Origin: an uncultured Candidatus Peribacteria bacterium
GTDB taxonomy: Bacteria; Patescibacteriota; Gracilibacteria; UBA1369
Reading direction: 5' to 3'
NCBI GenBank assembly: GCA_965231025.1
Contig: OZ246407.1
Location: forward strand, 845,512 to 909,511
DNA length: 64,000 bases
Shown here: piece by piece, positions 41,302 through 55,925 of the stretch
How the letters are laid out: the number at the start of each line of letters is the position of its first letter
Position numbering within the stretch: position 1 is the first letter of the stretch
Translations under genes and position numbers: made by a program
The notes under the pieces: generated by a model
Database searches by the model: none
What the model was told of the DNA's origin: nothing
The model's input: only the letters and a program-made list of their open reading frames with translations

Positions 41302-44300
41302 CTACTTTTTCCCGGTTTCATGGTTGGCAAAATCCAGCATGAATATCTTTGGGAACTCGGAATGTTTGGAGTAGAGCATAAAGGCTATCTTGGTCACATA
41401 AGCCTCCGACTTTCGTTTCTTCTTTTTTCCGGACTTGGGCATGGTCGGATCAAGCTGCTGGTCAGGTTCCCCTTCAAGTTTGATATGAATATTATGCAGC
41501 ATAATGCCCCGGGCAGCCAACTCGACCCTGGTTTCTTCGGTCAAATCCTTAAAACTTCCGCCGTTCTTTTCGTAAATATCCTTGAGAAACGCTTCAGCTT
41601 CCTGTGCCTCGGCATAATAAGCTTCCTGGGCCTTAATGTGTTCAATGTCACGTGAAACCTCAAGTTCCGTCCCGTTGATCCTGAAATTCGTGTGAATATA
41701 CCCCTTGGATTCATTCACCTTGTTCTGGTCAACGGTTTTGCGTTTTCCATTCACAATCTGCGAAGTTCTGGTGAAAACAAGATTGCTTAAATCAAGCCCT
41801 GCAAGGTTCGGTTTTCCGGTTTTTTTGCAAACAAGAGTGTAATTATGGAACGGAGCCTCATCACCCGTATCAACGGCCTCAGCACGGCCGGAGTAGTCCT
41901 CCAGCACTTCAAATCCGAAATGTTTGGAAAGCTGCTCCTGGAAAACCGCGAACTGTTCCGGACTGCAGACGCGGCTTGTCATGGTCAATAGAAGCACACC
42001 GCCCTCCCTCAACACCCTGTTGAATTCAAGAAGCGCTTTCACCCGTTCAACATTTTCCGGATTCTTGAAGCTCTGATCGAGCCTGGTGAACTCAAAAGCA
42101 AGTGCGCAGTTGGCCGCATCAAGCTGGCCATCCTTGAGGAACCTTCTCATGTCGGTCATCGATCCCACGCGGGGAGTAAGCTTCGGTTCAATCATCCTTC
42201 CCCCAAAATCAAGCATGTGCTGATTTAAATCCAAACTCTGCACAGCCCGGTCTTTGCCATCCTGGTCGTACAGCTCAAAACTCCGCTCAAGCACAAGCGG
42301 TCCCGAGGCGATGTCGCCGAAATTCCTGCCGGTAATAATCCCTTTTTCCTCAAGTTCACGGATAAGTCCGACGACAAAACGCGCGTTGTTGCCGCTCATG
42401 GAAGGTTCCCAGTTCTCGCAATAGATTTCGGCGATCATGCGGCCGTACTGGGCAAAAACTTCCTGGATATACTCCACTCCACGGTTCTGCAAGGCACCCA
42501 TGACCATGGCGAGCGTACGTTTGCGGCTCAAGAGATAGTTCATGATGGCCGTTCCCACAAACAACCGTCCTTCCACCACGCGGATAGATTCCGAAATATC
42601 GGTACTATTTAATCTTTCGAGCAGAGCATAATCGTTCTCGGTAATGGAACCGCCGTATTTCAACAGTTCCGTGAGTGAATACTTGTATTCGGCATGTTCA
42701 CGGATGCCCTGGTGAACGGTACCGGACGCCTGGAGAACCGTCACCTCTACATCACGGTTGGAACCCCTCGCAAACCGTTTAACGAGCTGCGCGGTGTCGG
42801 CCTTGTTGAACGTAGGCTCCAGGACAACCGCACGGTGGATATGTTCAAACTCATTCGTCCCTTCCCTCATCGTACCGCTCACGGAAAAAATAATCGTCTT
42901 CCGGTCTTTCCGCTTGGACTTCTGTATGATTTCCTTCCGTTCTTCATCGGTCGTGGAACCGTCATAAACCAGAACATCGACCCTGTCGCCAAAATACTCC
43001 CTAAGCCTTCTGGCGAAGGACGGATCGCGGTACTCCTCATGTTCACGGGTGACACCGTATTTATACATATTCTCCGTGACGACGACCGCGTCATACTCCT
43101 GAAGATACTGTTCGAGTGTCTCAACGGCCTTGTCAAAAAGCGCCGACTTCACTTCCCTGCCCGGAGCGAAGTAAGAAGGGTTCATGATACAAAGCGAAAG
43201 CATGTTGAGCTTCTGCGTTGAATCCAAAGCGTCATTTTCAAAAATGGCCTTGTAGATTTCCCGCTCCTCCTTGTTCAGTTCGTAATCGACATATTCCACA
43301 TATTTCTCCTCCCAATCTTCCGGCTCATCAAGCAGCAGATAAAAATCCAGGAGCACGTTCCTCACCACGAGCGGATCGTTATTCCTGACGGTTGACGCAA
43401 GGGTGCTTAAACTTCCGTACTTCACCCGGTCGGCAATACGAAGCTGGGGAACAATGTCATCGGGGCCGTTGGGGGTAGGATCGCCGGACATCAGCATGAT
43501 GTGGCCATTCTCGTAAAGCCCCGGAATTTCCGTCGCCAGACGGTAAATGGAATCGGTATAGGTGCCGTCCGGATTCCTTGCCCACTGGACTTCATCCACA
43601 GTCATAAAATCAAACTGCTGCGTCTTCAGGAGCTCGACGACATCATCGCGGAGCATGCTGTAAGGGACTATGACGATTTCAGCTTCAAGTTCCCTGGCTT
43701 TCTGTTCATCGGTCATGTTGGCAACAATCCTCCCGATGGACGGAGCACCTTCCGCATCCTTCTTATAATACTTCCTGATCTCATTTGGCAATTCATCGAC
43801 GATCATCGTGGGACAGACGTAAAGCATTTTTTTTGCTCCCACATGCTCTTTGGAGAGAAACGCCGTACCGGTTTTTCCCAAACCCATAAAAAATCCGAGG
43901 AGTTTCCTGTTTCCCGACCGGACAACCTCATCCTGACCGGTCTCTTCATTCTTGCGGATAACGCGGTTCCCGTCCTTCATCTCCTTCATCGCCACGCGCT
44001 GCCGGAGGGAAGGAAAGGTGGCAAACGTCCCATCCTTTTTCTGAATCGCCGAAACCATCCTGCCTGACGGAGCAATAGATAAAACATCTTTCCAGTACGC
44101 GATCAGATCATCGAATATCTCTTTCTGTCTGGGCTTGGCCGGATCGAACTCCTTTCTCAATTCTTTCTCGATCGTCTCAAAACGGGCAACGTATGACTCA
44201 ATCGGACGGCCGTCATATCCGTCTTTTATCAGGTCTTTGTACACACGGTTGCGGTACATGATGAAAACGAGCAGACGAATTTCCGTGAGTTCAAGAAACT

Positions 44301-45081
44301 GATCCGGAGTCCCCACAATGCCTATCGGATTGCTTTGCGGAACCCTGTGCTTGCCGAGGTATTCAGACAAAATACGCACAACCTGTGAAAACCCCATTTT
44401 TACCCTCCCGGATGAAATAAGAAACTGTGCGACGGCATCCGTACCAAACTTTTCGATAAGCGGCTTAAACTCCTGAATGATATGCGCAAGCTCCTTGTCA
44501 CGGACGACGGTATAGCTGATGTCAAAATGTTCCCGCAAATCACGCGGAAGCATATCCCGGAGAACTTCCCAGGACTGTACGCCGGTACATCTGTCCGTCA
44601 CACCGGCCTTCAGGCGTTCAAAAAGACCGCTGCCGTTGGCCTCAAGCTGAATCCATTGCTGGTTGAACTTCCAGTTCTTGTCCACCGGTTTGGGCATCTT
44701 TGCGCGGACCTGGGGAACAAGTTCCGCAAGACACATCGCAAGATCTTTTCTCCTTTCCAAATCCTGCACCAGGCGGAACTCACCGAATGTCTCCCGTTTC
44801 TTTTCCTGAAAAAACAGCTCAATCAGGGATTCCTGGATCTGTTTTCTGGCCTGCGAAACAACTTCAAGGAGGGGGCCTTTCAGTCGATCCAGACGCAGAC
44901 GCTTATCCACAAGAGCGCAAAGCTCGAATACATCTGATACCTCCCCGACGCCAAAATCCGAAAAACGGACATGGAACGAATCGACGACGGTCGTAATTTC
45001 ATCCGCCAGACCGGGATTCCGCTCTGAAGCCGCCTTTGCCTGGTCTTCGACCACTTTCCCGATTTTCGTGAAATCAATCAT
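41302..45081 (-). CDS. 1259-aa fusion protein: unknown N-terminal region, SNF2-family helicase, class I SAM methyltransferase, unknown C-terminal region (operon gene D)
   Basis: Helicase motifs: I GLGKTG (aa 400-405), II DEVQ (496-499), III MSGDP (531-535), V-VI ..SGTMREGTN...LEPTFNKADTAQLVKRFARGS. MTase-like motifs: FGDIASGPL, SLDLN, DAANCALAFEF, LREGGVLLL (aa ~915-1035). Confidence 0.75.
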   Translation of the reverse strand: MIDFTKIGKVVEDQAKAASERNPGLADEITTVVDSFHVRFSDFGVGEVSDVFELCALVDKRLRLDRLKGPLLEVVSQARKQIQESLIELFFQEKKRETFGEFRLVQDLERRKDLAMCLAELVPQVRAKMPKPVDKNWKFNQQWIQLEANGSGLFERLKAGVTDRCTGVQSWEVLRDMLPRDLREHFDISYTVVRDKELAHIIQEFKPLIEKFGTDAVAQFLISSGRVKMGFSQVVRILSEYLGKHRVPQSNPIGIVGTPDQFLELTEIRLLVFIMYRNRVYKDLIKDGYDGRPIESYVARFETIEKELRKEFDPAKPRQKEIFDDLIAYWKDVLSIAPSGRMVSAIQKKDGTFATFPSLRQRVAMKEMKDGNRVIRKNEETGQDEVVRSGNRKLLGFFMGLGKTGTAFLSKEHVGAKKMLYVCPTMIVDELPNEIRKYYKKDAEGAPSIGRIVANMTDEQKARELEAEIVIVPYSMLRDDVVELLKTQQFDFMTVDEVQWARNPDGTYTDSIYRLATEIPGLYENGHIMLMSGDPTPNGPDDIVPQLRIADRVKYGSLSTLASTVRNNDPLVVRNVLLDFYLLLDEPEDWEEKYVEYVDYELNKEEREIYKAIFENDALDSTQKLNMLSLCIMNPSYFAPGREVKSALFDKAVETLEQYLQEYDAVVVTENMYKYGVTREHEEYRDPSFARRLREYFGDRVDVLVYDGSTTDEERKEIIQKSKRKDRKTIIFSVSGTMREGTNEFEHIHRAVVLEPTFNKADTAQLVKRFARGSNRDVEVTVLQASGTVHQGIREHAEYKYSLTELLKYGGSITENDYALLERLNSTDISESIRVVEGRLFVGTAIMNYLLSRKRTLAMVMGALQNRGVEYIQEVFAQYGRMIAEIYCENWEPSMSGNNARFVVGLIRELEEKGIITGRNFGDIASGPLVLERSFELYDQDGKDRAVQSLDLNQHMLDFGGRMIEPKLTPRVGSMTDMRRFLKDGQLDAANCALAFEFTRLDQSFKNPENVERVKALLEFNRVLREGGVLLLTMTSRVCSPEQFAVFQEQLSKHFGFEVLEDYSGRAEAVDTGDEAPFHNYTLVCKKTGKPNLAGLDLSNLVFTRTSQIVNGKRKTVDQNKVNESKGYIHTNFRINGTELEVSRDIEHIKAQEAYYAEAQEAEAFLKDIYEKNGGSFKDLTEETRVELAARGIMLHNIHIKLEGEPDQQLDPTMPKSGKKKKRKSEAYVTKIAFMLYSKHSEFPKIFMLDFANHETGKK

Positions 45082-47890
45082 AATTCAGTGAACTAATAAG
45101 AACATCGACTTGTGCAATAAATTCCTTCCGTTTCGCCATGAGCTGGTCAAGACGAGTCTTGACTGCCGTGCTGTCCCGCTGGAGCTTCTGAAAAGGTTCA
45201 ACCTCGTGGCAGAGATCATCGGTCTCTTGACCCAGCCTGAGAATGAGAGCCTTCATGTTTTCAGCCGTTGCCTGAAGCGTTTCGGCCTCAGAAACCAAAG
45301 GCTCCAAAACCGTTTCGTCCGGTTCCTCAGCGTACAGCAGAGCTCTGATCTTCATTTTCACGACCTCAAGCCTCCGGGTACCGGATTCAACACTTTCCCG
45401 CAGACTCGAACACTCTACTGTTTTGCTTCGCAACACTTCTTTTCTCCCGTCCAAAGCTTCCAAAATAACGGCGTATTCGGCCAATTTTTCGGTGCACGAC
45501 GCAATTTTCTGATCAAGGGTTTTGAGAACAAAAGCGAACTTGTCGATCTCCGGAGTGGATTCGTGCACCTCAACTCTTTTGTTCGGAGCTTCCTGCATAA
45601 GTTCGGCAAAATCCTCAGGCGTCAGCTTCAAACTGATAAACCCTCGCATATCCTCTTCTTCACCGCTGTCATCCGACTTTCTTTTCGCCTGTGTCACCTC
45701 ATAATTCGCACGGACCTTCTCCAGAAAAGGAAGTACCTGGAACTCCACAACGTCAATCGGACATGCCACCCTCCCTTTTTCAAGATCAACCGTGCCGAGA
45801 ATACTGACATACAACTCAACCATGTCATATAAAAAACCTTTTCTTCGCCGCTTCACGAACTGCACCTCGTCGGCCCACTGGAGAACATTCTTGATGCGTC
45901 CACCCATAAAGCTCAAACGCTCTTCCACAACCATCAACTCCTTTGCCTTCTCCTCCCTTTCCCTGGCAACGAGCTTTTCTTCAAGGCAGGCGGTGATGAG
46001 GGGATAAAAATCACTTTCCTTGCGGACAGGATATCCCCCGTGCAAACTGCCGTTGATATTCTGCGCCCATTGCCCGACTTTCCCCTGGGCAACGAACTCT
46101 TTAAGGTGACCGGCCGCATCAAGGCCTTTTTGGAATGGCACCTGATCCAGATAACGCTTGAGCAACATTACTTCCTGCGGGTAAAGAGGTCCGTCGAAAT
46201 CTTCACGGTGCCGTTCCCCCAGCATGGCCGCGTAGACCATTCCGGTCTCATCGTTCTCACAAGCCCCTTCCGTCCCTCCCACAGATTTCCCGTCATGCAA
46301 TTGGGCGACAAGACTGCCGTAATCCAGATTCAACTGACGGAAATCAAAAGAATCCGCTTCACCAAAATAGACGGCGAAATCCTCACAGGTGCTCACCGAT
46401 TGAGCAAGTTCATCCGTCAACCCGCGTTCAAACTGCCAAACCTGTTCGGTAAAATACCGCTTAAGTCTGCGCGTATTTCCAACCATTCCATGAAGTTTTG
46501 CGAAATACCGCTGAATGGCATGTCTCAACAAGACACCAACCTCCGCCATGGCCTCAACTTCCCGTTTATTGATACATATGGACATTGAATTTGGGCCGGC
46601 ATGATCGTCTCTGTTGTTCAGGAAGAACTTTTCCAGAAGTTTTTTCAAAATCCCCGCATGCACGTCGGCGGCAAATGACCTCAAAATATCGCCATGGACA
46701 TCGGCAAGTTTGACTCCGCTCAATTCCGGATCCAAAACAGGAGGAATCGGACTTCCTTTGCCGGCACATCGGTCTCCAAGGAAAGCTTCGTCCCTGACCG
46801 GGAGACCTCCGTGGATAACGTCATTAAGCATCGCCGCAATTTCGCCGTTCTCCAAACCGTTCTTCAGAGCGTGCTTCTTAAGGGCATGTTCGGCCGGAGA
46901 ACAATCCACCACGGCTTCCTTGTTTCCGTCCGGGTCCACGAGCGGATATTTATGTTTCTTGGGCATCACAAGCGCCACGGGAGTATGAATATCGTATTCA
47001 TATCCCTTTTGATACTGTTGAAAAACATCGACATCGAGAGCACCGATAACCGCAATCAAAGATTGAAGACTTTCATGAAGAACATCAACAAGTCTTTCAG
47101 CTTCGCGATGCGTAGAAAAAGCGGCCTGTATCCTGGTTTCTGTCACTCCCTTCAACAAACGACCCCAGTAATTCCTGAAAGAATCGAAACCGCATCCCCC
47201 TTTCGCCTCATAAGAATGCCTCATGAAAAGCTTCAGGTTGTCATTTTCAGCGGCCACCAGCTGGAAAAAATGGACGATAATATCCAGCAGATCTTTTGAA
47301 ATAATTTCCGTATCAGCACCGGACTGACCGATGAATCTCATATTGCGCAACCTTGCCGCGACATCCCGCCCCCAATTGGTTTCGAGAATTACAATCTGTT
47401 CAAGATAAAAACTTTCCACATCGTCAGGACAGCCTTCAAAAAGCTTATACATGTCCTGCGAAATTTCACCGACCTCCTCATCGTCTTCCGGCAATTCCTC
47501 CTCCGCGGGACGATTCTGGAAATTTGCGTTTCTTCTGACCTCGGCGCAAACATCCGTAGTATAGGTGTTCACAAGTACGGAAAGAGGCTTTTCAAGTGAA
47601 ATAAACGGAGTCGAAATGAGCGACTTGCGCAAACCCCTGAGACCGGCCCGAACTTCATCGGAAACGGCCAGCAGATCCTCATGGTAAAGCACCCGTTCTC
47701 CGGGAATGCTGTCAAGAACGCCCAAAACCGCGTCACGAACCTCAATTAATTTACTGGCGATATCCCTTTCAAACTCACCACGGTCACGCCTGCCATTCGC
47801 TTCAAAAAGACCCTTCACCTTGTCGTATCCTGCGTGAATCTTGGTTCGTAACACATTCTTGCTGACTCCGTCCATCTTGTTCATAGTCAC
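45074..47890 (-). CDS. 938-aa protein of unknown function, helical with C-terminal coiled coil (operon gene C)
   Basis: Long ORF whose stop overlaps the start of gene D by 8 nt. GTG start at 47890, or ATG at 47884. No signal peptide, TM segment or catalytic motif recognised. Confidence 0.7.
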   Translation of the reverse strand: MTMNKMDGVSKNVLRTKIHAGYDKVKGLFEANGRRDRGEFERDIASKLIEVRDAVLGVLDSIPGERVLYHEDLLAVSDEVRAGLRGLRKSLISTPFISLEKPLSVLVNTYTTDVCAEVRRNANFQNRPAEEELPEDDEEVGEISQDMYKLFEGCPDDVESFYLEQIVILETNWGRDVAARLRNMRFIGQSGADTEIISKDLLDIIVHFFQLVAAENDNLKLFMRHSYEAKGGCGFDSFRNYWGRLLKGVTETRIQAAFSTHREAERLVDVLHESLQSLIAVIGALDVDVFQQYQKGYEYDIHTPVALVMPKKHKYPLVDPDGNKEAVVDCSPAEHALKKHALKNGLENGEIAAMLNDVIHGGLPVRDEAFLGDRCAGKGSPIPPVLDPELSGVKLADVHGDILRSFAADVHAGILKKLLEKFFLNNRDDHAGPNSMSICINKREVEAMAEVGVLLRHAIQRYFAKLHGMVGNTRRLKRYFTEQVWQFERGLTDELAQSVSTCEDFAVYFGEADSFDFRQLNLDYGSLVAQLHDGKSVGGTEGACENDETGMVYAAMLGERHREDFDGPLYPQEVMLLKRYLDQVPFQKGLDAAGHLKEFVAQGKVGQWAQNINGSLHGGYPVRKESDFYPLITACLEEKLVAREREEKAKELMVVEERLSFMGGRIKNVLQWADEVQFVKRRRKGFLYDMVELYVSILGTVDLEKGRVACPIDVVEFQVLPFLEKVRANYEVTQAKRKSDDSGEEEDMRGFISLKLTPEDFAELMQEAPNKRVEVHESTPEIDKFAFVLKTLDQKIASCTEKLAEYAVILEALDGRKEVLRSKTVECSSLRESVESGTRRLEVVKMKIRALLYAEEPDETVLEPLVSEAETLQATAENMKALILRLGQETDDLCHEVEPFQKLQRDSTAVKTRLDQLMAKRKEFIAQVDVLISSLNYD

Positions 47891-47901
47891 GTTTGGTTAG
47901 G

Positions 47902-49824
47902 TCAATCGTTCGGCTTCGCCGGGACATCCTCCCGGGGCGATATAATATCCTGGGTTCTTGACCGTTCGACCAGATCGGCAAGGGATTCATCAAATATTCT
48001 CTGTTTTTCAGCCTCAAGTTTTTCCCTCGTCTCACGTTCAGTGCGTTCTTTTTCAATAAGCTGGTCCAAACGGTCAGCCTCCACCTGCGTGGCTGCGACC
48101 TCCGCTTCAAGAGCAACTTTTTTCCCCTGAAGGATATCCGCCTCCTGCTTTTTTGAAGCCATCTGGGCGCCCAAATTCTGCAACATGACATAATCGTCGC
48201 TATCCATTGCCGCCGTGGATTTGGTGCGTAACATACTGAGATCGGCCCTGAGAGAAACGATTTGGGCACCAACCTCCGCAAGTTCACGGCGTTTTCCAAC
48301 AACCCGTTGAAGCAGCGTCACAAATCGGGCCTGAGATTCTTCCCTTTGCGCTTTGGCCATTTCATCCTCAGCAGGCTGCTGAAAATCCCCCCTCACTTCA
48401 TCGATCAGGCTTGGCAAATCACTGTCTCCGCCGCTGAGTGTACGCTCCAGATTGCGAAAAATCGCCACGTGCGCGTCAAAAATCTTTTGCTGGTTTGGCT
48501 TGGCGGATACGGCGTCGCGTCCGTTAATGGTAACGACCTCTACCGACTGCATGAAATCCTCGATTTTCAAAAGTGAAAACATGACCAGCTTGCGATCATA
48601 ACAGGCCTGGTCCGCGAGAATCTTCCTGGCAGCCTCGATCTCATGGCGGACATACGAATTCCTCTGCGTTTTGGGCAGCCCGGCAATCCATTCCAGAGCC
48701 TGCAAAATGCGCCTGTCGATTTCGAGGTTCAGCTCCCCATTCCTGATATCCACCGTTACATCCAAATCATCCAGTACCGGCATGGGCACGGAATCCGGAA
48801 CTTCATTATCTTCATTCCGGACAATCTTTGCTTCTTCGTGAACTTCAACCCCGGAAGAACAAACCGCCTGTGCGGACCTTCGGTATTCATGGAACGGTCC
48901 TCCATAAACACTGGAAAAATCCGCAAACTGCCGGGTGAAATGATCTCTCGCCCACTTATTACCCGAACAACTATAATCCGGCTTATAATCAACAAATTCA
49001 TCGACAGACATGTTTTGAAAGACCTCAATGAGCCTTGCAGTGACGGTAAAAAGATAACCTTTCGTTTTGGAATCCAGTTTGTCGTTACCAAGGGTATCCC
49101 GCTGCCGCCTCAAAACGGCCAAAACAAAATCCCGTAACTGTTCAAAACTCATCCTATAACCGCGATCGCGTGCACCATCGACAAAACGATCAAGCTTGAG
49201 GAGCCAAGGTACGAAATGCTTAACCTCCTCGTTATACCTTTCAATTTTTCTTGATACATCTTTTGGAAATACCTGACGGTCAAGCAAATCAGTACCTACC
49301 ACTCCTCCATCGAGTGAAATATGACTCGCAATGCCGATCTCGACGGCATGCTTGTAGAGGAAAAAAGTCACGATATTTCCCAGTTGCAATTTGATCAAAG
49401 TCGAAGACGCCTCCCTCTTGTTCCTGTCCTTTTCTTCGATATACAAATCCCGTCCCCCCGTTGAAAAATCATAACCCTCCGCTAGAGATTTCTGTATTTT
49501 ACGTTTGTGGGCACCGACAAGTCCGAGCGCAAAATCTTTAAGTTCCCGGGGCACGCCATCCAGATTTTCCACCGATGAGGCGAACTCCGCGAACTTCGCC
49601 GCCACAGGTTTACAAAGCGATTCCAGGTCTTCCGGGAAATCAATGGAAAACGCAAATGTGCCGGATAATATTGCGGCGAGATCCCGTCGTAAAGCCTGAA
49701 CCCTGTCGCGGACGGCCTGGACGCCTTCATAATCCACGGCAAGCTCAGCATTGACCTCCTGGACGGAAGACTCAAACATGCCCATGAGCGTATCTATTCC
49801 CAATTGTCGGGGTTTCTGTGTCAT
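47902..49824 (-). CDS. 640-aa protein of unknown function, paralogue of genes A and C, C-terminal coiled coil (operon gene B)
   Basis: ATGA start/stop overlap with gene A. Shares the block ILQALEWIAGLPKTQRNSYVRHEIEAARKIL..KLVMFSLLKIEDF with gene A. Confidence 0.7.
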   Translation of the reverse strand: MTQKPRQLGIDTLMGMFESSVQEVNAELAVDYEGVQAVRDRVQALRRDLAAILSGTFAFSIDFPEDLESLCKPVAAKFAEFASSVENLDGVPRELKDFALGLVGAHKRKIQKSLAEGYDFSTGGRDLYIEEKDRNKREASSTLIKLQLGNIVTFFLYKHAVEIGIASHISLDGGVVGTDLLDRQVFPKDVSRKIERYNEEVKHFVPWLLKLDRFVDGARDRGYRMSFEQLRDFVLAVLRRQRDTLGNDKLDSKTKGYLFTVTARLIEVFQNMSVDEFVDYKPDYSCSGNKWARDHFTRQFADFSSVYGGPFHEYRRSAQAVCSSGVEVHEEAKIVRNEDNEVPDSVPMPVLDDLDVTVDIRNGELNLEIDRRILQALEWIAGLPKTQRNSYVRHEIEAARKILADQACYDRKLVMFSLLKIEDFMQSVEVVTINGRDAVSAKPNQQKIFDAHVAIFRNLERTLSGGDSDLPSLIDEVRGDFQQPAEDEMAKAQREESQARFVTLLQRVVGKRRELAEVGAQIVSLRADLSMLRTKSTAAMDSDDYVMLQNLGAQMASKKQEADILQGKKVALEAEVAATQVEADRLDQLIEKERTERETREKLEAEKQRIFDESLADLVERSRTQDIISPREDVPAKPND

Positions 49825-52427
49825 GCTTTTGATGAATGAAATTGGGCCGACTCTTGATAGGTATGCAGAAGCAAAACCCTCACATCACGGACAAATTGAC
49901 GCCTTCTCTGGTGCACCGCCTCAAGCCGGGATTTTACGGAAGCCATCTGCCCGGCCGTTTTTCTCCGCAAGTCGCGTGATTCCACCAAAGCTCCCAGCTC
50001 CTTTTGAATCTCATCGATGCGGGCGTCAATTTCCCCGATGCGGGCTTTCAGTTTCCTGGACTCGGAAATATGAACTCTCATCTCCGTAAAATGATCCTCC
50101 TTCAGCAAAGAAGGGAGTGATTCGAACAAAGCGGACCTCCGACCGTCAGCCAAAGCCTTTTCCGCAAATAAACCGGCACGTTCGCTTTCAAACGACAGTA
50201 TTGCCTGTTCAGCGCCGTCAACCCCATCGCCAAAATCGGATTCAAGCCTGAAATACTCTTCCTCAAGACCTGAAATGACAGCCTGAAATTCCCGCAGCCT
50301 TTCCTGCACGATTCTTGCGGAAGCGCTTCTGGCAGGATTTTCAAAACTCAATTCCCTGAAAATCCTGACGTACAGGGACATCAGCTCATCACTGTCCAGA
50401 CTCGTGCTGAACGCCTTGGTCGTTTCCTCAAAATCAATTTGGTCACGGAATGCCTCCAGTTTGAGGAGTGCGTAAGTGACGAGACTTTTGGGATGCTCCT
50501 CCGGGGCAGAAAGTACCTGGATCAATGCGGCGATTTCATGCCTTATATAAGTCTTTTTTTGCATTTCCGGGAACTGTCCGAACCATTCAACCACCGATTG
50601 AATACGCGTCTCCCTACCGGCAATCACGGGATCCGGCAAAACCGGGGCCTCAACGGGCCCCGACTCGCCGCCGGTAACGTCTTCATTGGCATCTTCGGTG
50701 ACCGCGTCGCCGGTAACGTCTTCGGACGCCACCTCGCAGGTTACGCTTTCGGCCGCCTGCACCGGCTCTTCCTCAGGTTGAGCCGCCGGCTTTTCCCCAA
50801 CTGCTTTTGCATCCAAAACATCCTTCCATAATGCGGCCTTGCAGGGAGTCGGATCAAATGCATACATCGACATGCGGAGGTTGACGGCCTGCAAAACACC
50901 CGGAGCCATACCCTCAAACCGCATTGCTCCAAAATCCTCAATCGGCATGTGTGCAATTCGTGCAATAACTTTCTCAAGAAGTTCCTGCTTTTTTTGAGTA
51001 TGGCCGCATAATTTCGATTTCGAGTTCGACTGAACGTATGTGGACAATCGTGACCCTAAAAACTCAAGGACTCTATCCCTCAACTGACCCAACCCAAACC
51101 CTTCGGCGGCCCCCTGGTTCAACAAAGGTTTTACCTGCTCATCAACGATCTGCAACGTTTTCCATAGAAACGTATCGACAGTCTTGAAATCAACGATCAG
51201 AGTGGCATCATTGGCATGAAGGTCATTACATCTTGTGCAGCAGTACAACCCCTGCTGTAGTGCCTCGGTAAAAAAAGGTTCATAGATCAAAAGCGCGAGC
51301 CGGTTGGAAAACTCATCCGGACTCTCCCTGTAAGCATCAGGAATCGGCTGAAAAGGTGAAGGTGGAGCTTCCGGTAAAGGGGAAACTTCCGGTGAAGCCG
51401 CTGGGGGCTCGCATTCAACGACCGGGACATCCGCGTCTGTCCCCGGTACCTGGACCTGCGGAACTCCAAGAGCGGATACCGCGGAATCCGGATCGCATTC
51501 ATCAACCTCTGCGCAAAGATTCCGGAGCTCATGTCTTTTCATCCCATCAAGAACTTTTTTTCTGTAAAAAGCCCTGGTATTCCCGAAAATCGCTGAAAAC
51601 TTCGGATGAATCCCGGCCTCCAAAAAATCACTTTCAGCCAGATGTTCCGTGTCCGTAAAAACCCCGTTGGCAAAATCTCTCAGTTCAGCAAGCGCCGGGC
51701 CTTTTATTCCGTAACACATCTTCAAATTCCCGCGCCTTTTGTTTAAAAAATTACGGAACGTGCGAACCAGATCTGAAAACCGGAAAGGTTTCTTCAAATA
51801 CTGCATGTGCTTCACATCTTCGATAATTTTATTCAACGCATCGTCAGCGAGCTGCTGCATGACATTGAGAAGGTCCTGATCGGAGGTACTCTTCGTATGA
51901 ATTCTCTCGCATCTCCCGCACAAATATCCACCTTTGTCCTCATAAACGGGAGACAAAAGCTTCGAAAAATAGATTTGAAACTGAAGCAACGCGGGTTCCA
52001 GGTTATACATGTAATCATCTCCCAACTCCAACTTCTGCTCCCCCATCTCCAAATCATACTTCTCACCAATCATTGCTTTCACCTTGCGGCGTTCGCTGAA
52101 AATAGCCCCGGTGAGATCGGTAACAACCATCGGAGAAAGCCCATACTTGGCCGCCGCTTCCTCCATGCTCGTTTTAACCGTGGCACCGATTAACTCACAG
52201 ACATGATCTAATTCAGACTGCCTCCCGATAGCCCCCGGAACCGCTTGACCTATTGAAGCGATAACATCGTCTCTTATTCGAGCCAAAGTCTTAACAATAA
52301 GCAGACTTTCCTCAGATACATCATAAGAACCGGCAATTTCGCTGTATGAAGCAGCGACGGCCTTGGTCAGGTAGTTCTGGCTTAAAATAGTCTGTTTTTT
52401 TGCCTCAGCACGCACAATTACGTACAA
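49821..52427 (-). CDS. 868-aa protein of unknown function with an internal duplication and C-terminal coiled coil (operon gene A)
   Basis: The first possible start is the TTG at 52427 (alternative GTG at 52415). Two repeat modules carry C(G/T)RC..(I/L)H. Acidic/Pro-rich linkers. Contains the block IQSVVEWFGQFPEMQKKTYIRHEIAALIQVL. Confidence 0.7.
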   Translation of the reverse strand: MYVIVRAEAKKQTILSQNYLTKAVAASYSEIAGSYDVSEESLLIVKTLARIRDDVIASIGQAVPGAIGRQSELDHVCELIGATVKTSMEEAAAKYGLSPMVVTDLTGAIFSERRKVKAMIGEKYDLEMGEQKLELGDDYMYNLEPALLQFQIYFSKLLSPVYEDKGGYLCGRCERIHTKSTSDQDLLNVMQQLADDALNKIIEDVKHMQYLKKPFRFSDLVRTFRNFLNKRRGNLKMCYGIKGPALAELRDFANGVFTDTEHLAESDFLEAGIHPKFSAIFGNTRAFYRKKVLDGMKRHELRNLCAEVDECDPDSAVSALGVPQVQVPGTDADVPVVECEPPAASPEVSPLPEAPPSPFQPIPDAYRESPDEFSNRLALLIYEPFFTEALQQGLYCCTRCNDLHANDATLIVDFKTVDTFLWKTLQIVDEQVKPLLNQGAAEGFGLGQLRDRVLEFLGSRLSTYVQSNSKSKLCGHTQKKQELLEKVIARIAHMPIEDFGAMRFEGMAPGVLQAVNLRMSMYAFDPTPCKAALWKDVLDAKAVGEKPAAQPEEEPVQAAESVTCEVASEDVTGDAVTEDANEDVTGGESGPVEAPVLPDPVIAGRETRIQSVVEWFGQFPEMQKKTYIRHEIAALIQVLSAPEEHPKSLVTYALLKLEAFRDQIDFEETTKAFSTSLDSDELMSLYVRIFRELSFENPARSASARIVQERLREFQAVISGLEEEYFRLESDFGDGVDGAEQAILSFESERAGLFAEKALADGRRSALFESLPSLLKEDHFTEMRVHISESRKLKARIGEIDARIDEIQKELGALVESRDLRRKTAGQMASVKSRLEAVHQRRRQFVRDVRVLLLHTYQESAQFHSSKA

Positions 52428-52546: not shown

Positions 52547-53137
52547 CTACATCACCAAGCCCGCTTTTTGGGCACAATCCAGAATAACCTTTTCGACGTC
52601 TCCGACACACAGGGGAATCTTGTTTTCCAGACTCCAAACCTGGTAGTCAAAAAGGTCGGCCGCCGCCATCTCGCGCTGGGCGCTTTCCATGCGCCGCTGC
52701 AGCTCCTCTTCGGGAAGTTTCCCCCGCTTTGCAATGCGTTCAAGCAGTTTCTCGGGACTTTCCGCTTTCAAAAAGATCGTCACCAGATTTTCCCTGGGCA
52801 TCACCTTCCGGATCGAATGAAACCCCTGGACATCAACTTCCCTCACCACGATTTTACCGGCCTCCAGCGAATCGATGATCGGCTTCTTCAACGTCCCGTA
52901 ATAGTCCTTCTTATGGACCTGGGCCCATTCCAGAAAATTGCCCTTATCGATTTCGGACTTAAACCTCTGCTCACTGATGAAGTGGTACACCTCACCGTCC
53001 TTTTCCCCCGGCCGGATAGCTCGCGTCGTATGGGAAATCGGAAAAACAAACCGGGGATATTTTTCCTTGAGGGCGCGGATAACCGTCCCTTTTCCAACGC
53101 CCGACGGACCTGAAATAATAAAGAGAATTCCTTTCAT
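52547..53137 (-). CDS. gmk: guanylate kinase
   Basis: ATG at 53137 (MKGILFIISGPSGVGKGTV). The track's 41-aa N-terminal extension is rejected. Has TTR..R.GE.DG..Y.F. Confidence 0.92.
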   Translation of the reverse strand: MKGILFIISGPSGVGKGTVIRALKEKYPRFVFPISHTTRAIRPGEKDGEVYHFISEQRFKSEIDKGNFLEWAQVHKKDYYGTLKKPIIDSLEAGKIVVREVDVQGFHSIRKVMPRENLVTIFLKAESPEKLLERIAKRGKLPEEELQRRMESAQREMAAADLFDYQVWSLENKIPLCVGDVEKVILDCAQKAGLVM

Positions 53138-53259
53138 GGCTCCGCCTGCGAGGCTATTGACTAAAAAGTAAGAATATTTTATAATACTATAATGCTCTGA
53201 AGCACCAAAACCAAGTATAGCAAAAAAAAACTCATCCGTCGCAACCCCTTCTAAGAGCA

Positions 53260-53288
53260 TTGAAGAAAACGGGAAAAAATGCTAGAAT
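53260..53288 (+). promoter_or_regulatory. sigma70-type promoter facing the noncoding interval
   Basis: TTGAAG (53260-53265), 17-nt spacer, TAGAAT (53283-53288). Confidence 0.45.
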
Positions 53289-53294
53289 AATGAG

Positions 53295-53819
53295 ATAACA
53301 AAAAGCAAAAAATGTTCCTTGAAAACTAAAACCAACGTCGAAAAGTAGTCAGACACAAGCTATCCGGTGGAAAATGGCTTCTGCCTCCCTACTTTTCGAT
53401 GCAGTCGGCGCGACAACCGACTCACCTAAAGTAGCCTCCGTCACTACCGCCCGCCGAATATTCTTTTGCGGGCCGACGGCAGGAACTTACCCCGAGCACA
53501 CAGTGCTCAACAAAACAAAAACACACTCAACCAAAAAGTTTACTTCTCCTCGCTTCGGCCGGGAGAGAAACACAAAAAACCAAAATACAAATGGACGGCG
53601 GTGTAACCAGCGTCCTAAAATAATGCACCAAAGAACGGTAGGGAGCAAAGTTTTTCAGCATTCATGCTGAAAGACGGTAACAGGGCACATTTGTTCGCGG
53701 CCTTGTTGCCAACCGCTCCTTGATCTTCTTTATCCTCAGCGCTTCGAAAACAAGCAGCTGATAGGGTAAGATCAGAGAGCTATAAAAGGACCAGCATCTT
53801 TACGAAGCTGGTCCTTTTT
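53295..53819 (+). ncRNA. candidate large structured ncRNA (~0.5 kb), unclassified
   Basis: At least 9 hairpins or helices lie between the promoter and an intrinsic terminator. Helices at 53676-53685/53701-53710 and 53715-53734/53760-53780 contain G-U pairs that work only in the plus sense. A/C-rich single-stranded linkers. There is no credible ORF and no downstream plus-strand gene. Confidence 0.45.
53784..53819. terminator. bidirectional intrinsic terminator (candidate ncRNA on plus strand, ssb on minus strand)
   Basis: aaaaggaccagc (53784-53795) pairs with gctggtcctttt (53807-53818). T-runs follow on both strands. Confidence 0.7.
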
Positions 53820-53845
53820 CCTATGCCCCACAAGGGTCAGTTCAA

Positions 53846-54340
53846 TTAAAACGGAAGATCCTCAATCGCAACCTCATCGGCGGCGCCTGCGGCAACGGCC
53901 GGCCCCATGTCCACGCCTTCGGCCGCCTGATTTTGCTGAATCCCGGCGGCTTTGCGCGGAGCGCCAGTGTATCCGCCGCCCATTTCATCATCCCCGGACG
54001 AAGCGCCTTTTCTATCGAGAATAATGACATTTTCGGCAACAATTTCCGTCCGGTAGCGTTTCACGCCGTCTTCGCCCTCCCAATCGCGGGTCTGCATGCG
54101 TCCTTCGACATAAACCTTTGTCCCCTTCTTCACATACTGTCCAACGATTTCAGCGAGCCTTCTCCAGACCACGACGTTGTGGAACTCAGCCTTCTCCTGT
54201 TTCTGGCCAGACTGGTCCTTCCAGACAAAGTTCGTCGCGACGCTGAAAGAGGCCACGGTCTGTCCTCCCGGAATCTGGCGGAGTTCCGGATCGCGGGTAA
54301 CGTTCCCGATAATCTGGGCACGGTTCAATGACATTGCCAT
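53846..54340 (-). CDS. ssb: single-stranded DNA-binding protein
   Basis: Start MAMSLNRAQIIGNVTRDPELR (ATG at 54340 or 54334). OB fold, Gly/Ala-rich tail, and a C-terminal acidic tip IEDLPF. Confidence 0.92.
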   Translation of the reverse strand: MAMSLNRAQIIGNVTRDPELRQIPGGQTVASFSVATNFVWKDQSGQKQEKAEFHNVVVWRRLAEIVGQYVKKGTKVYVEGRMQTRDWEGEDGVKRYRTEIVAENVIILDRKGASSGDDEMGGGYTGAPRKAAGIQQNQAAEGVDMGPAVAAGAADEVAIEDLPF

Positions 54341-54671: not shown

Positions 54672-55925
54672 ATGACAACCTACGCATTTATTCTTGGCCG
54701 GAAACACCTGCTTTCCATAGCAGAACTCTGCACCGTACTGGGCTCCGTAAAGGGATCGAAAATCATCGACCTCGTCCCGGAAGCCCTCATCGCGGAACTC
54801 CCGCAGCCCCTCGCCAATCCGCAAGAGAGCCTGAACCGTCTTGGCGGAACCATCAGCATCGCAGAAATTTTCAGCCAGTCAAAAAAAGATAAGTCTGCCA
54901 TCGTCCCGGCAGTCGGCGAATTTCTGACGACAAAATTCCAGGGAAGACCGAACAAGCTCAATTACGGAATAAGCCTCTCCAGTTTTACAGAAAGACATGA
55001 AGAAATTTTAAAAAGAACCTTAATTTCCCTTAAAAAAGAACTGGTCAAAGCGGAAATTAAATCCCGTTTCATCAACAAGAACTTCAAAAATCCCGAAAGC
55101 GCCGCCATACACGGAGAAGAACTCCTCAAAGACGGTTCCCACATCACTGTCATTCAGGGCAATAACCACTATTTCTACGGTGAAACGAAAGCGCTCCAGG
55201 ACATTGAAAAATACAGCCAGCGCGACTATCAACGGCCGGGCCGGGACCCCCACCTGGGCATGCTCCCTCCAAAACTGGCCCAGATGATGATCAACCTCGC
55301 CGGAAAAACCCCGCTGGAAGAAAAAATCCCGGACAACAGCCTGCTCTATGACCCGTTCACCGGCATTGGGACGGTACTCACCGAAGGACTGCTCCTGGGA
55401 TTCAACGCGCTCGGTTCCGACATCAACGAACAAGCACTCCAAAAAGCCCACAATAACATCGACTGGATGATAAGGAAATACAACATCCTCACCCCCCAGC
55501 CCCGGCTCTTCATCAAAGACGCGACCCAGCTCACCAAAAAAGAGATACCCCAGTCCCCCGCCCTCATCGTGACTGAATCGTACCTTGGACCTCCGGTAAG
55601 CCAGTTCCCCGTCCCGGAAAACATCAGAAAAACCTTCAGCAGTATCCACGAAACGCTGTTCAGATTTTTCAGAACGGTCAAGCCGCTCATAGACAAAGAG
55701 ACCCCCGTCGTCATCAGTTTCCTGGCCTACAAACGCAAGGACCGGTACTTCTTCCTGGAAGACCTGGTTGAAGAAATTGCGCAAATGGGATACCGGGCAG
55801 AACCGCTCATTCCCCATGAAATCAGCAAAAAATACGGCTTGAAGGTCTACGAGCGGCTGGGACTCATCTATGACCGTCCGGACCAGATCGTCTGCCGCGA
55901 GATATGGAAGTTCGTCAAAACATAA
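54672..55925 (+). CDS. putative RNA methyltransferase (UPF0020/Trm11-like, THUMP-like N-terminus)
   Basis: Class I MTase motif LLYDPFTGIGTVLTEG..LG....GSDI followed by IVTESYLGPP, in place of the D/NPPY-type motif IV. Confidence 0.55.
   Translation: MTTYAFILGRKHLLSIAELCTVLGSVKGSKIIDLVPEALIAELPQPLANPQESLNRLGGTISIAEIFSQSKKDKSAIVPAVGEFLTTKFQGRPNKLNYGISLSSFTERHEEILKRTLISLKKELVKAEIKSRFINKNFKNPESAAIHGEELLKDGSHITVIQGNNHYFYGETKALQDIEKYSQRDYQRPGRDPHLGMLPPKLAQMMINLAGKTPLEEKIPDNSLLYDPFTGIGTVLTEGLLLGFNALGSDINEQALQKAHNNIDWMIRKYNILTPQPRLFIKDATQLTKKEIPQSPALIVTESYLGPPVSQFPVPENIRKTFSSIHETLFRFFRTVKPLIDKETPVVISFLAYKRKDRYFFLEDLVEEIAQMGYRAEPLIPHEISKKYGLKVYERLGLIYDRPDQIVCREIWKFVKT

Follow-up and report, generated by a model that had tools for sequence, protein, structure and literature searches.

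What is encoded in the gap between gmk and ssb in this Candidatus Peribacteria genome, and what might its product do? Within the window, the whole 64,000-nt stretch of DNA that was analysed, positions 53295-53819 of the plus strand appear to constitute a single-copy gene for a noncoding RNA (ncRNA) of about 0.5 kb with its own promoter and terminator. The assignment to a strand-specific, independently transcribed, structured RNA without an Rfam match is strongly supported by the sequence comparisons described below.

The gap spans 53138-53845 and is 708 nt long. The original prediction gave a length of 585 nt because the gmk ORF had been drawn too long; the alignment with relatives begins at MKGILFII, which places the gmk start codon (ATG) at 53137. 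The RNA is divergent from gmk and convergent with ssb, as had been described, yet gmk and ssb are themselves co-directional on the minus strand. The absence of a downstream plus-strand gene was borne out: the terminator is followed by the convergent ssb, and the next plus-strand gene begins at 54672. The RNA does not occupy the 5′ UTR of a same-strand gene and is in this respect unlike a riboswitch or cis-regulatory leader.

The promoter looks sigma-70-like, with an extended −10 box. The predicted sequence TTGAAG-N17-TAGAAT was recovered by the promoter scan and has TG ahead of the −10. The extended box, TGnTAnnnT, precedes the RNA in 33 of 58 homologues, and the promoter consensus in the A2 alignment is AAAAnTGnTAnAAT. 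Transcription would start at about 53293-53295, both transcript ends being placed from the sequence. The predicted strong terminator with its T-run is likewise present in the minimum-energy (MFE) fold, where GGACCAGC (53788-95) and GCUGGUCC (53807-14) form the stem ahead of U5 (53815-19). A simple terminator scan missed it because the loop is longer than 8 nt. Relatives carry a hairpin and T-run of different sequence at the same place, and in most of them a larger 3′ domain is embedded within the terminator stem. The hairpin is sufficiently palindromic to terminate transcription of ssb from the opposite side too. The features of the locus are listed in Table 1.

Table 1. Features of the ncRNA locus in window coordinates.
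Feature	Positions	Strand	Basis
Promoter: −35 TTGAAG (53260-65), extended −10 TGCTAGAAT (53280-88)	53260-53288	+	Promoter scan; homologues
Predicted primary transcript of the ncRNA, ~525 nt	53295-53819	+	Fold z = −11.5; nhmmer homology 53313-53819
Conserved 5′ motif (A)UGUUCCUUGAAAAC	53311-53326	+	Conserved in alignments
P1 helix, 53337-48 with 53389-400; encloses V1	53337-53400	+	Helix 1: 87% paired
Variable hairpin V1	53353-61 with 53376-84	+	81% paired; 9/9 pairs changed on both sides
Hairpin H2	53404-53421	+	93% paired; 4/5 pairs changed on both sides
AAAGUAG, alternative partner of CUACUUU	53428-53434	+	Window's clade; elsewhere CGUUAAGU or similar
Hypervariable insert V2, base a CCUCC/GGAGG-type stem	53435-53508	+	Alignments; length varies widely
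A/C-rich tract 1 AACAAAACAAAAACACACUCAACCAAAAAG, predicted unpaired, strongly conserved	53509-53539	+	Invariant adenines in A2
Hairpin V3, UUCUCCUCG...CGGGAGAG	53538-53571	+	Helices 6-8: 53-73% paired, every pair changed on both sides; alignment imperfect
A-rich tract 2, consensus AAAAAACAAAAAUAAAAAAG	53572-53592	+	Invariant adenines; alignments
H-type pseudoknot	53593-53629	+	Stem H4 = 53593-97 with 53611-15
Variable hairpin V4	53650-53675	+	11-bp stem in window; 54% paired on MAFFT alignment
Hairpin H5	53676-53710	+	Helices 13-14: 79% paired; 9/9 pairs of helix 14 changed on both sides
Long irregular hairpin P9, conserved UUAUCCUC and GAUAGG	53715-53780	+	RNAalifold; helices 16 and 19 82% paired
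Intrinsic terminator: A4, 8-bp G+C stem (12 pairs in MFE), U5	53784-53819	+	MFE fold; relatives

A further 68 homologues, each single-copy, were identified in genomes and metagenomes of Peribacteria/Peregrinibacteria. Together with the window there are 69 loci at nhmmer E < 1e-15, with homology spanning 53313-53819. The RNA family has so far been found only in Peribacteria/Peregrinibacteria, which are CPR bacteria; viral contigs scanned with the core motif contained 0 copies. In all 69 loci the RNA lies on the strand opposite gmk, and wherever gmk is adjacent the RNA 5′ end is 64-368 nt from the gmk start. In one locus (L029) the RNA is 3 kb from gmk. The nucleotide conservation of the RNA holds where Gmk is only 52-56% identical. 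Six core elements, all present in the window, define the family: CUC(C/U)CUACUUUUCGA, the H2 loop kissing the H5 loop, two ACAAAAAYA tracts, the GGUG/CACC pseudoknot, AAAGAAC-GGUAG(G/A)GAG, and the position divergent from gmk. The fifth of these corresponds to AAAGAAC followed by GGUAGGGAG at 53630-53645 (+). Among the 68 homologues, 45 were retrieved by a motif from the RNA itself, and for these the conservation of the motif is a circular finding; the 53630-53645 motif served to retrieve the metagenome homologues and is invariant in them by construction. The same motif is also conserved in 22 GTDB loci found via Gmk.

The plus strand folds with an energy of −184.1 kcal/mol, compared with −123.4 ± 5.3 kcal/mol for shuffled sequences (z = −11.5), and the minus strand with z = −5.1. 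G.U pairs are more frequent than A.C pairs in the best-aligned helices (273 versus 148), even though the strand is A/C-rich. Both comparisons agree with the strand specificity that had been claimed for the fold. RNAalifold on 53571-53716 gave only the invariant GGUG/CACC pairing, because the variable hairpins were misaligned; the structure was therefore imposed on the alignment and its pairs were counted. Across 58 sequences, 77.1% of the cells pair in the proposed structure, versus 67.0 ± 0.3% after shuffling (0/500 shuffles reach 77.1%) and 42-47% when the partners are slid. The covariation score is 0.271, versus 0.142 for shuffled and 0.09-0.12 for slid partners, and 97 of 119 pairs are changed on both sides. 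These pair counts support the structure. The alignments were made with MAFFT, and on them the pairing of several variable helices reaches only 54-70%. As GGUG/CACC and most of P1 are invariant, covariation speaks neither for nor against these pairings.

The predicted fold contains at least eight conserved helices. V1, V2, V4 and the 3′ end vary freely in length, whereas the core and the two A-rich single-stranded tracts are almost invariant; of the 31 invariant alignment columns, 16 correspond to adenines of unpaired tracts. The family alignment supports most of the helices drawn in the original prediction, namely those at 53337-48/53389-400, 53404-21, 53538-71, 53593-615, 53650-75, 53676-85/53701-10 and 53715-80. 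The hairpins drawn at 53449-73 and 53494-508 fall within the hypervariable insert, where relatives have other hairpins of other lengths; this insert is alignable among close relatives only. The A/C-rich linkers noted earlier are real and rank among the most conserved parts of the RNA.

In the 5′ half, the conserved motif at 53311-53326 finds its commonest potential partner at about 53640 (the GGGAG region) in 39 sequences, without clean covariation. P1 can be extended into CCCUAC, and this extension covaries in a second clade, where GUAAGG pairs with CCUUAC. The alternative pairing proposed for AAAGUAG (53428-34) is present in the window's own clade but is not family-wide. The family-wide competition for the same strand is a different one, between the P1 extension and a long-range helix. 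The loop of H2, CGCGACAA (53409-16), constitutes one partner of a kissing interaction.

In the 3′ half, the H4 stem is 92% paired; one of its pairs is G-C in 39 sequences and A-U in 16, and another is G-C in 53 and C-G in 4. At the position of V4, relatives bear hairpins of other lengths. The loop segment of H5, UUGUUCGCG (53691-99), is the second kissing partner. For P9, RNAalifold predicts 19 pairs, 14 of which are changed on both sides. A GAAA-tetraloop-receptor-like element in P9 (UAUCC/GGUAAG) was considered and dropped, as it occurs in close relatives only.

The two halves appear to be tied together by three tertiary contacts: a long-range helix, an H-type pseudoknot and a pair of kissing loops. 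The long-range helix is formed between 53385-92 (CUCCCUAC) and 53638-45 (GUAGGGAG) and is 96.8% paired in the 58-sequence alignment. Its pair 53388-53642 occurs as C-G (47 sequences) or U-A (10 sequences), and was also recovered blind by mutual information. The 5′ strand of this helix overlaps the 3′ strand of P1 at CUAC (53389-92). The overlap amounts to 4-6 nt, and a static picture is therefore incomplete. More generally, two alternative partners are available to the central pyrimidine strand CUCCCUACUUUUC, namely the 5′ strand GAAAAGU(A/G)G(GG) and the distal GUAGGGAG. This choice makes a built-in conformational change or an ordered folding step likely.

In the pseudoknot, the loop GGUG (53600-03) pairs with CACC (53626-29), and the A-rich strand 53616-25 crosses between them. 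The pairing is possible in 58/58 sequences (57/58 at one of the four pairs) and is 99.6% paired but invariant. The kissing pair between the H2 loop (53409-16) and the H5 loop (53691-99) exists in about ten complementary variants, among them CGACUA/UAGUCG, CGACUG/CAGUCG, CGACGA/UCGUCG, CGAUCA/UGAUCG and CGGCAA/UUGCCG, as well as CCAACUA/UAGUUGG, CCAACA/UGUUGG, CAAUC/GAUUG and UUGACUA/UAGUCAA. The complementarity has a mean of 5.67 nt within a sequence, versus 3.61 ± 0.15 nt for loops taken across sequences. For all of these pairings, covariation fits intramolecular and intermolecular contacts alike.

No catalogued family accounts for this structure. At this locus, Rfam 15 gave no match when the whole window was searched at the gathering score and no family match in 53100-53900 in permissive mode (E ≤ 10). 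The sole sub-threshold match in the region, to Thr_leader (21.9 bits versus 55), reflects just the hairpins of P9 and the terminator. No match at E ≤ 0.1 was obtained in eight relatives, among them forms that bear the extra 3′ domain. The orphan status proposed in the original prediction withstood the comparison with Rfam, and no description of this RNA was found in a full-text literature search. The RNA stands outside the catalogued families, and its conservation extends over an entire class of ultra-small (CPR) bacteria.

We consider it probable that the locus encodes a new class of large structured RNA, a folded object that works in trans as a ribonucleoprotein (RNP) scaffold or a catalyst. 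Such an RNA would act as a compact three-dimensional object and would most probably be the RNA subunit of a ribonucleoprotein, or else a catalytic or ligand-binding RNA. The step from a folded RNA to a scaffold or catalyst is taken by analogy with other large tertiary-structured RNAs. The invariant unpaired adenines may serve tertiary packing, as A-minor contacts or in a pseudoknot triple helix, or protein contacts, or both. We infer that the RNA acts neither as an antisense regulator nor as a series of separate binding sites for proteins. A more specific proposal is tentative: the RNA may represent an unrecognised housekeeping class of Peribacteria (a ribozyme, the RNA core of an RNP machine, or an 'ornate' RNA that self-assembles) in which the P1 extension and the long-range helix would exchange strands as a built-in switch. 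In the self-assembling variant, the kissing loops would act between molecules.

The original prediction likened the RNA to protein sponges of the CrcZ type. CrcZ binds Hfq/Crc and relieves catabolite repression, and its promoter is CbrB/RpoN-dependent. Sponges of this type typically contain 5-6 unpaired CA motifs, AAnAAnAA, and those of the CsrB/RsmZ type contain many GGA/ANGGA motifs in hairpin loops. A sequestering RNA of either type would use its A/C-rich tracts to titrate a single-strand RNA-binding protein (Hfq-like, S1-like or other), and the hairpins would only present these tracts. The RNA resembles CrcZ/CrcY/CrcX and CsrB/RsmZ in having hairpins parted by A/C-rich single strands and in being an independent unit, with its own promoter and terminator, without a downstream gene. 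In addition, ACAAAAAYA recurs in both of its long A-rich tracts (53509-39 and 53572-92), which are unpaired and nearly invariant, fit the A-R-N/AAN triplet periodicity and could be protein-binding sites. However, the known sponges have 5-6 or more repeated motifs where two A-rich tracts are found here. AAnAAnAA occurs twice in the window RNA, at 53297 (the extreme 5′ end) and at 53514, and relatives have 1-7 tracts. GGA triplets number six, and ANGGA-type sites three, at 53591 (the H4 base), 53640 (the long-range strand) and 53786 (the terminator). Neither the several AAnAAnAA of the CrcZ type nor the many loop GGA/ANGGA of the CsrB/RsmZ type are therefore present, and no Rfam CrcZ, CsrB or RsmZ match was obtained. 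The RNA is also larger and has a compact fold with a conserved long-range helix, pseudoknot and kissing loops, which have no role in a sponge. We know of no sponge RNA with these three elements conserved, and of no partner protein for a sponge-type RNA in this lineage. The likeness to CrcZ was not upheld, and a sponge function is unlikely.

It is quite unlikely that the RNA is a trans-acting base-pairing regulator or a conformational riboregulator. In the first form, exposed CUCCC, CCUCC and CUCCU would pair with the Shine-Dalgarno regions of target mRNAs. Several such anti-SD-like motifs exist, but they are paired within covarying helices, and the size and tertiary complexity of the RNA are atypical of base-pairing sRNAs. 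In the second form, the competition between P1 and the long-range helix would sense a signal and control read-through into the ssb antisense strand. The competition for the strand CUCCCUAC is family-wide, the RNA and ssb converge on a common bidirectional terminator, and in most relatives the terminator stem encloses a structured domain. Against this, the RNA is separated from ssb by other genes in five loci (L005, L092, L060, L021 and L096), and two more (L107 and L049) have no ssb within the fetched DNA.

An extremely divergent form of a known housekeeping RNA (RNase P RNA, tmRNA, 6S RNA or SRP RNA) is very improbable, although the RNA shares several traits with RNase P RNA and tmRNA. These are its size, one copy per genome, lineage-wide presence, a variable periphery, pseudoknots, and a long-range helix that closes a conserved core and is flanked by conserved A-rich joining strands. 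By eye, the short purine motifs G(G/A)AAAGU and CACCAAAGAAC faintly resemble CR-I and CR-V of RNase P RNA. However, GAAAAGUAG and GGUAGGGAG, the purine strands, share a third strand as their pairing partner and do not pair with each other, so that no P4 is formed. CR-I (GGAAAGTCC; GGAAAGUCC), the T-loop GGTTCGAATCC and the SRP domain IV motif are absent from the window RNA even at up to 2 mismatches. The RNase P RNA covariance models did not reach threshold in the window, in 53100-53900 or in the eight relatives. Unlike RNase P RNA, the RNA has no P4 with GGAAAGUCC, and its 5′ and 3′ ends are unpaired in the fold, the 3′ end being the terminator hairpin. Unlike tmRNA, it has no tRNA-like domain, tag ORF, T-loop or CCA end. 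TCCACCA has no exact match, the nearest (1 mismatch) being internal A/C-rich stretches at 53527 and 53624, and ARAGORN found no tmRNA or tRNA at the locus. SRP RNA and 6S RNA gave no Rfam match, and a stem closing the 5′ and 3′ ends is absent. The lack of RNase P P4, tRNA or tmRNA T-loop and SRP domain IV reported originally was reproduced by motif searches, ARAGORN and Rfam.

A cis element of the minus strand, either a structured 3′ UTR of ssb or a 5′ leader or riboswitch of gmk, is highly unlikely. It would fit the collinear order of ssb, the gap and gmk on the minus strand in nearly all loci, and the minus strand also beats its shuffles. However, the extended −10 box and the T-run terminator are conserved in the plus orientation, the excess of G.U over A.C lies on the plus strand, and the plus-strand z-score is twice as strong. 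Moreover, a separate TGCTATACT box for gmk is located between the RNA and the gmk start codon, and in L029 the RNA is far removed from gmk. Finally, translation of the 98-aa ORF at 53374-53670 (+), which the original prediction had named as evidence that would count against an ncRNA, is extremely unlikely: the ORF exists, but it is not conserved and has no Pfam match, the longest plus-strand ORF is 48, 49 and 27 aa in the close relatives L002, L003 and L062 and ranges erratically over 19-170 aa in the family, the conserved blocks are set apart by indels of arbitrary length, and conservation tracks base pairing, not codons.

A large folded RNA that acts in trans remains our preferred reading. 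CPR/Patescibacteria form a huge radiation; these bacteria are reduced and for the most part uncultured, and their biology has largely been deduced from protein genes. To our knowledge, no such large structured RNA has been described for them, and conserved tertiary structure is rare among large bacterial RNAs. A single-copy RNA of ~0.5 kb kept beside gmk across a whole class points to a new housekeeping function. Its sequence is better conserved than the neighbouring proteins, and three tertiary contacts would hold its halves together. With the 68 homologues and the pairing scheme, the function can be tested directly.

The closest counterparts are the large 'ornate' ncRNAs of bacteria, whose functions are poorly known or not known at all: OLE, GOLLD, ROOL, HEARO and raiA/ModT. 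Large structured RNAs of known function are mostly ribozymes or essential RNP cores, and large intergenic regions have for this reason been singled out by discovery screens (PMC5737381). GOLLD, ROOL and OLE form unexpected homo-oligomeric assemblies (PMC12286853). Like these RNAs, the one described here is a few hundred nucleotides long and lineage-restricted, with many conserved helices, pseudoknots, long-range contacts and conserved unpaired adenines. It also shares with them a conserved core, variable peripheral stems and a function that cannot be read from the sequence. It differs from them in three respects. First, it matches none of their models: those of OLE, GOLLD, ROOL, HEARO and raiA in Rfam 15 gave no match in the window or the eight relatives. 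Second, 0 copies were found in viral contigs, and it occurs in CPR bacteria rather than in Firmicutes or phages. Third, it is single-copy and chromosomal, at a fixed site divergent from gmk, rather than in a prophage or mobile element.

The element at window positions 53295–53819 is strongly supported as a noncoding RNA on the plus strand. It occupies the interval between gmk and ssb. That gap had been predicted, with a size of 585 nt; its boundaries become 53138–53845 because the alignment with every Gmk relative begins at MKGILFII, whose ATG is at 53137. The longest mechanical gmk ORF (237 aa, 52547–53260, minus strand) begins 41 codons too early, and its extension would overlap the promoter region of the RNA. 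The closest relatives of the window's Gmk all come from MAGs labelled Peribacteria, Peregrinibacteria or Gracilibacteria; judged by sequence, the host is a Peribacteria/Peregrinibacteria (CPR) bacterium. Directly downstream of gmk lie four very large ORFs (1259, 938, 640 and 868 aa; 41302–52427, minus strand), of which the 868-aa ORF, the sole one tested, has no Pfam domain.

The predicted plus-strand promoter was located, with an additional TG upstream of its −10 box. Of 58 sequences, 33 have the pattern TGnTAnnnT ahead of the RNA, and many of the others are truncated. A near-consensus sigma-70-like site within the gmk 5′ region may give the RNA an additional start further upstream, and an extended −10 box on the opposite strand probably serves gmk. 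The MFE fold ends in the expected terminator, a 12-pair hairpin followed by U5, which a simple terminator scan overlooked because of its long loop. A hairpin and CCTnTTTTC form the end of the alignment consensus, which opens with AAAAnTGnTAnAAT.

Features of the RNA and its surroundings (window coordinates)
Feature	Position	Strand	Details
gmk	53137–52547	−	Pfam Guanylate_kin
Sigma-70-like site	53157–53185	+	TTGACT-17-TATAAT, 11/12
Extended −10 box	~53215–53223	−	TGCTATACT
RNA promoter	53260–53288	+	TTGAAG-17-TAGAAT
P1	53337–53348/53389–53400	+
V1	inside P1	+	9/9 pairs covary
H2	53404–53421	+	93% paired
H4	53593–53615	+	92% paired
H5	53676–53710	+	79% paired; 9/9 pairs of helix 14 covary
P9	53715–53780	+	82% paired
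Long-range helix	53385–53392/53638–53645	+	CUCCCUAC with GUAGGGAG; 96.8% paired
Pseudoknot			GGUG (H4 loop) with CACC located 10 nt beyond the stem; possible in 58/58 (57/58 at one pair)
H2/H5 loops			CGACUA/UAGUCG, CGAUCA/UGAUCG, CGGCAA/UUGCCG, CCAACUA/UAGUUGG (examples)
ssb	54337–53846	−	Pfam SSB
tRNA-Thr(UGU)	56594–57177	+	anticodon loop split by 509-nt intron
Group I intron, Rfam match	56881–57129	+	3′ part of intron, 62.8 bits

The fold has an MFE of −184.1 kcal/mol, compared with −123.4 ± 5.3 for dinucleotide shuffles (z = −11.5), and contains the helices listed in the original prediction. The complement strand reaches z = −5.1. In the eight best-aligned helices, G·U pairs outnumber A·C (273 versus 148) despite the A/C-rich strand; both comparisons agree with the strand-specific fold proposed earlier. 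For covariation, the window fold and pairs from a blind mutual-information scan were mapped onto a 58-sequence MAFFT alignment. Pairing is possible in 77.1% of cells, compared with 67.0 ± 0.3% after shuffling (0/500 reach the observed value) and 42–47% with partners slid by 1–3 columns. The covariation score is 0.271, versus 0.142 shuffled and 0.09–0.12 slid, and 97 of 119 pairs change on both sides. V1, H2, H4, H5 and P9 are well supported in this alignment. RNAalifold independently places 19 pairs in P9, of which 14 vary in both partners. Of the 31 invariant columns, 16 are adenines predicted to be single-stranded.

Three contacts tie the 5′ and 3′ halves together: the long-range helix, a pseudoknot and a loop–loop interaction. 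At one position of the long-range helix, 47 sequences have a C-G pair and 10 a U-A pair. The predicted pseudoknot has an A-rich crossing strand, like classical H-type pseudoknots; its GGUG and CACC are invariant, so that covariation speaks neither for nor against it. About ten complementary variants of the H2 and H5 loop pair occur, with a mean contiguous Watson-Crick match of 5.67 nt within the same sequence versus 3.61 ± 0.15 nt between sequences. This contact may instead be intermolecular, since covariation is compatible with such pairing. GOLLD, ROOL and OLE form homo-oligomeric complexes (PMC12286853).

P1 and the long-range helix compete for the pyrimidine strand CUCCCUACUUUUC, overlapping by 4 nt in the clade that includes the window and by 6 nt in a second one. 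Both pairings have comparative support, because in the second clade the 5′ strand GUGGGG becomes GUAAGG where the target is CCUUAC. The shared strand suggests, from these sequences, strand exchange or ordered folding. The alternative partner first proposed, AAAGUAG, is present in the window's clade alone. A partner was also sought for the conserved 5′ motif UGUUCCUUGAAAAC, and none was proven. Post hoc, the 5′ motif GAUUUGUUCCUUG (53311–53323) resembles GAGUUUGAUCCUGG, which we take to be the 16S rRNA 5′ end, and GAUC..CACCUCU in the relatives' 3′ domain resembles GAUCACCUCCUU, presumably the 16S 3′ end.

In most relatives the terminator stem contains an additional conserved domain, GGGGCAUC..UCCACCUCUGAC[hairpin]GUCAUGUGAAAUUCGA..GGUGCCCC-UUAUUU, for which the window's lineage substitutes a plain hairpin. 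Homologous loci L022, L023, L046, L053, L063, L107 and others have the 3′ domain 3′ of P9, with the motif (U)CCACCUCUG(A/C)...GUCAUGUG.

Of the 33 Peribacteria-type species representatives whose loci were fetched via Gmk, 23 have the element, 22 of them distinct; L013 and L014 are identical in the RNA region and count as one. In this pair, a 'Bacteroidia bacterium' MAG contig gives the same match coordinates, identities and scores as a same-site Gracilibacteria MAG contig, and mis-binning or mislabelling is the probable cause. A further 45 loci came from metagenomes scanned with the core motif CACCAAAGARCRGTAGRGA, whose invariance among them holds by construction; it is equally conserved in the Gmk-derived loci. 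The element occurs once in each of the 69 loci (65 distinct sequences), always on the opposite strand to gmk. Its 5′ end lies 64–368 nt from the gmk start wherever gmk is adjacent; in locus L029 it is 3 kb away. It is usually convergent with ssb, with other genes intervening in five loci, and is absent from a viral contig collection. Nucleotide similarity is detectable even at 52–56% Gmk identity. Distant Peribacteria loci (L024–L030, perhaps L031–L033) encode a shorter RNA in the same place, sharing the 5′ motif, CCCUCUCUACUUU, the AAAAACAAAAACAAAAGUAGUAGAG tract and the 3′ domain (retained in L024–L030). An HMM of the short forms reaches the long forms at E ~0.007 only; the two are probably homologous.

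Rfam 15 gives no match to a known family at gathering scores, as befits the orphan RNA first proposed. The absence of RNase P, tmRNA, tRNA and SRP signatures was likewise upheld: the RNase P CR-I, T-loop and SRP domain IV motifs do not occur in the RNA at up to 2 mismatches, and ARAGORN places no tmRNA or tRNA at the locus. UCCACCA-like matches all carry at least 1 mismatch and lie in internal A/C-rich stretches. Default ARAGORN missed the nearby intron-split tRNA-Thr(UGU); relative L025 has a sub-threshold group I intron match (L025:479–718, 44.4 bits). The RNA goes unmentioned in one full-text literature collection, including the Peribacteria genome paper, and in the 224-motif paper, a paper on a tmRNA database and a recent preprint on ncRNA mining.

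A CrcZ-type sponge, the analogy originally drawn, fits poorly: the RNA holds two AAnAAnAA and few GGA motifs, and a sponge has no need of tertiary architecture, whereas this family conserves one. Translation of the 98-aa ORF at 53374–53670 is rejected, as it has no Pfam match and is not kept in relatives; for three of the closest (L002, L003, L062) the longest plus-strand ORFs measure 48, 49 and 27 aa, and the family as a whole spans 19–170 aa. Thr_leader, the sole match under permissive Rfam filters, scores 21.9 bits against a threshold of 55 and mirrors the two 3′ hairpins.

Fold strength, covariation, homologues and the lack of a kept ORF thus bear out the structured noncoding RNA first proposed. 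We infer that it is most likely a trans-acting folded RNA, which would scaffold an RNP or form a catalytic or ligand-binding core, and which may contain a conformational switch. As it shows none of the tested defining features of RNase P RNA, tmRNA, riboswitches, OLE, ROOL, GOLLD or raiA, it is filed as a new RNA family. RNAs that act as folded objects, including RNase P RNA, tmRNA, introns, riboswitches, OLE, ROOL, GOLLD and raiA, combine a conserved core and variable periphery with a long-range helix, a pseudoknot, kissing loops and invariant unpaired adenines, and the window RNA bears the same signature.
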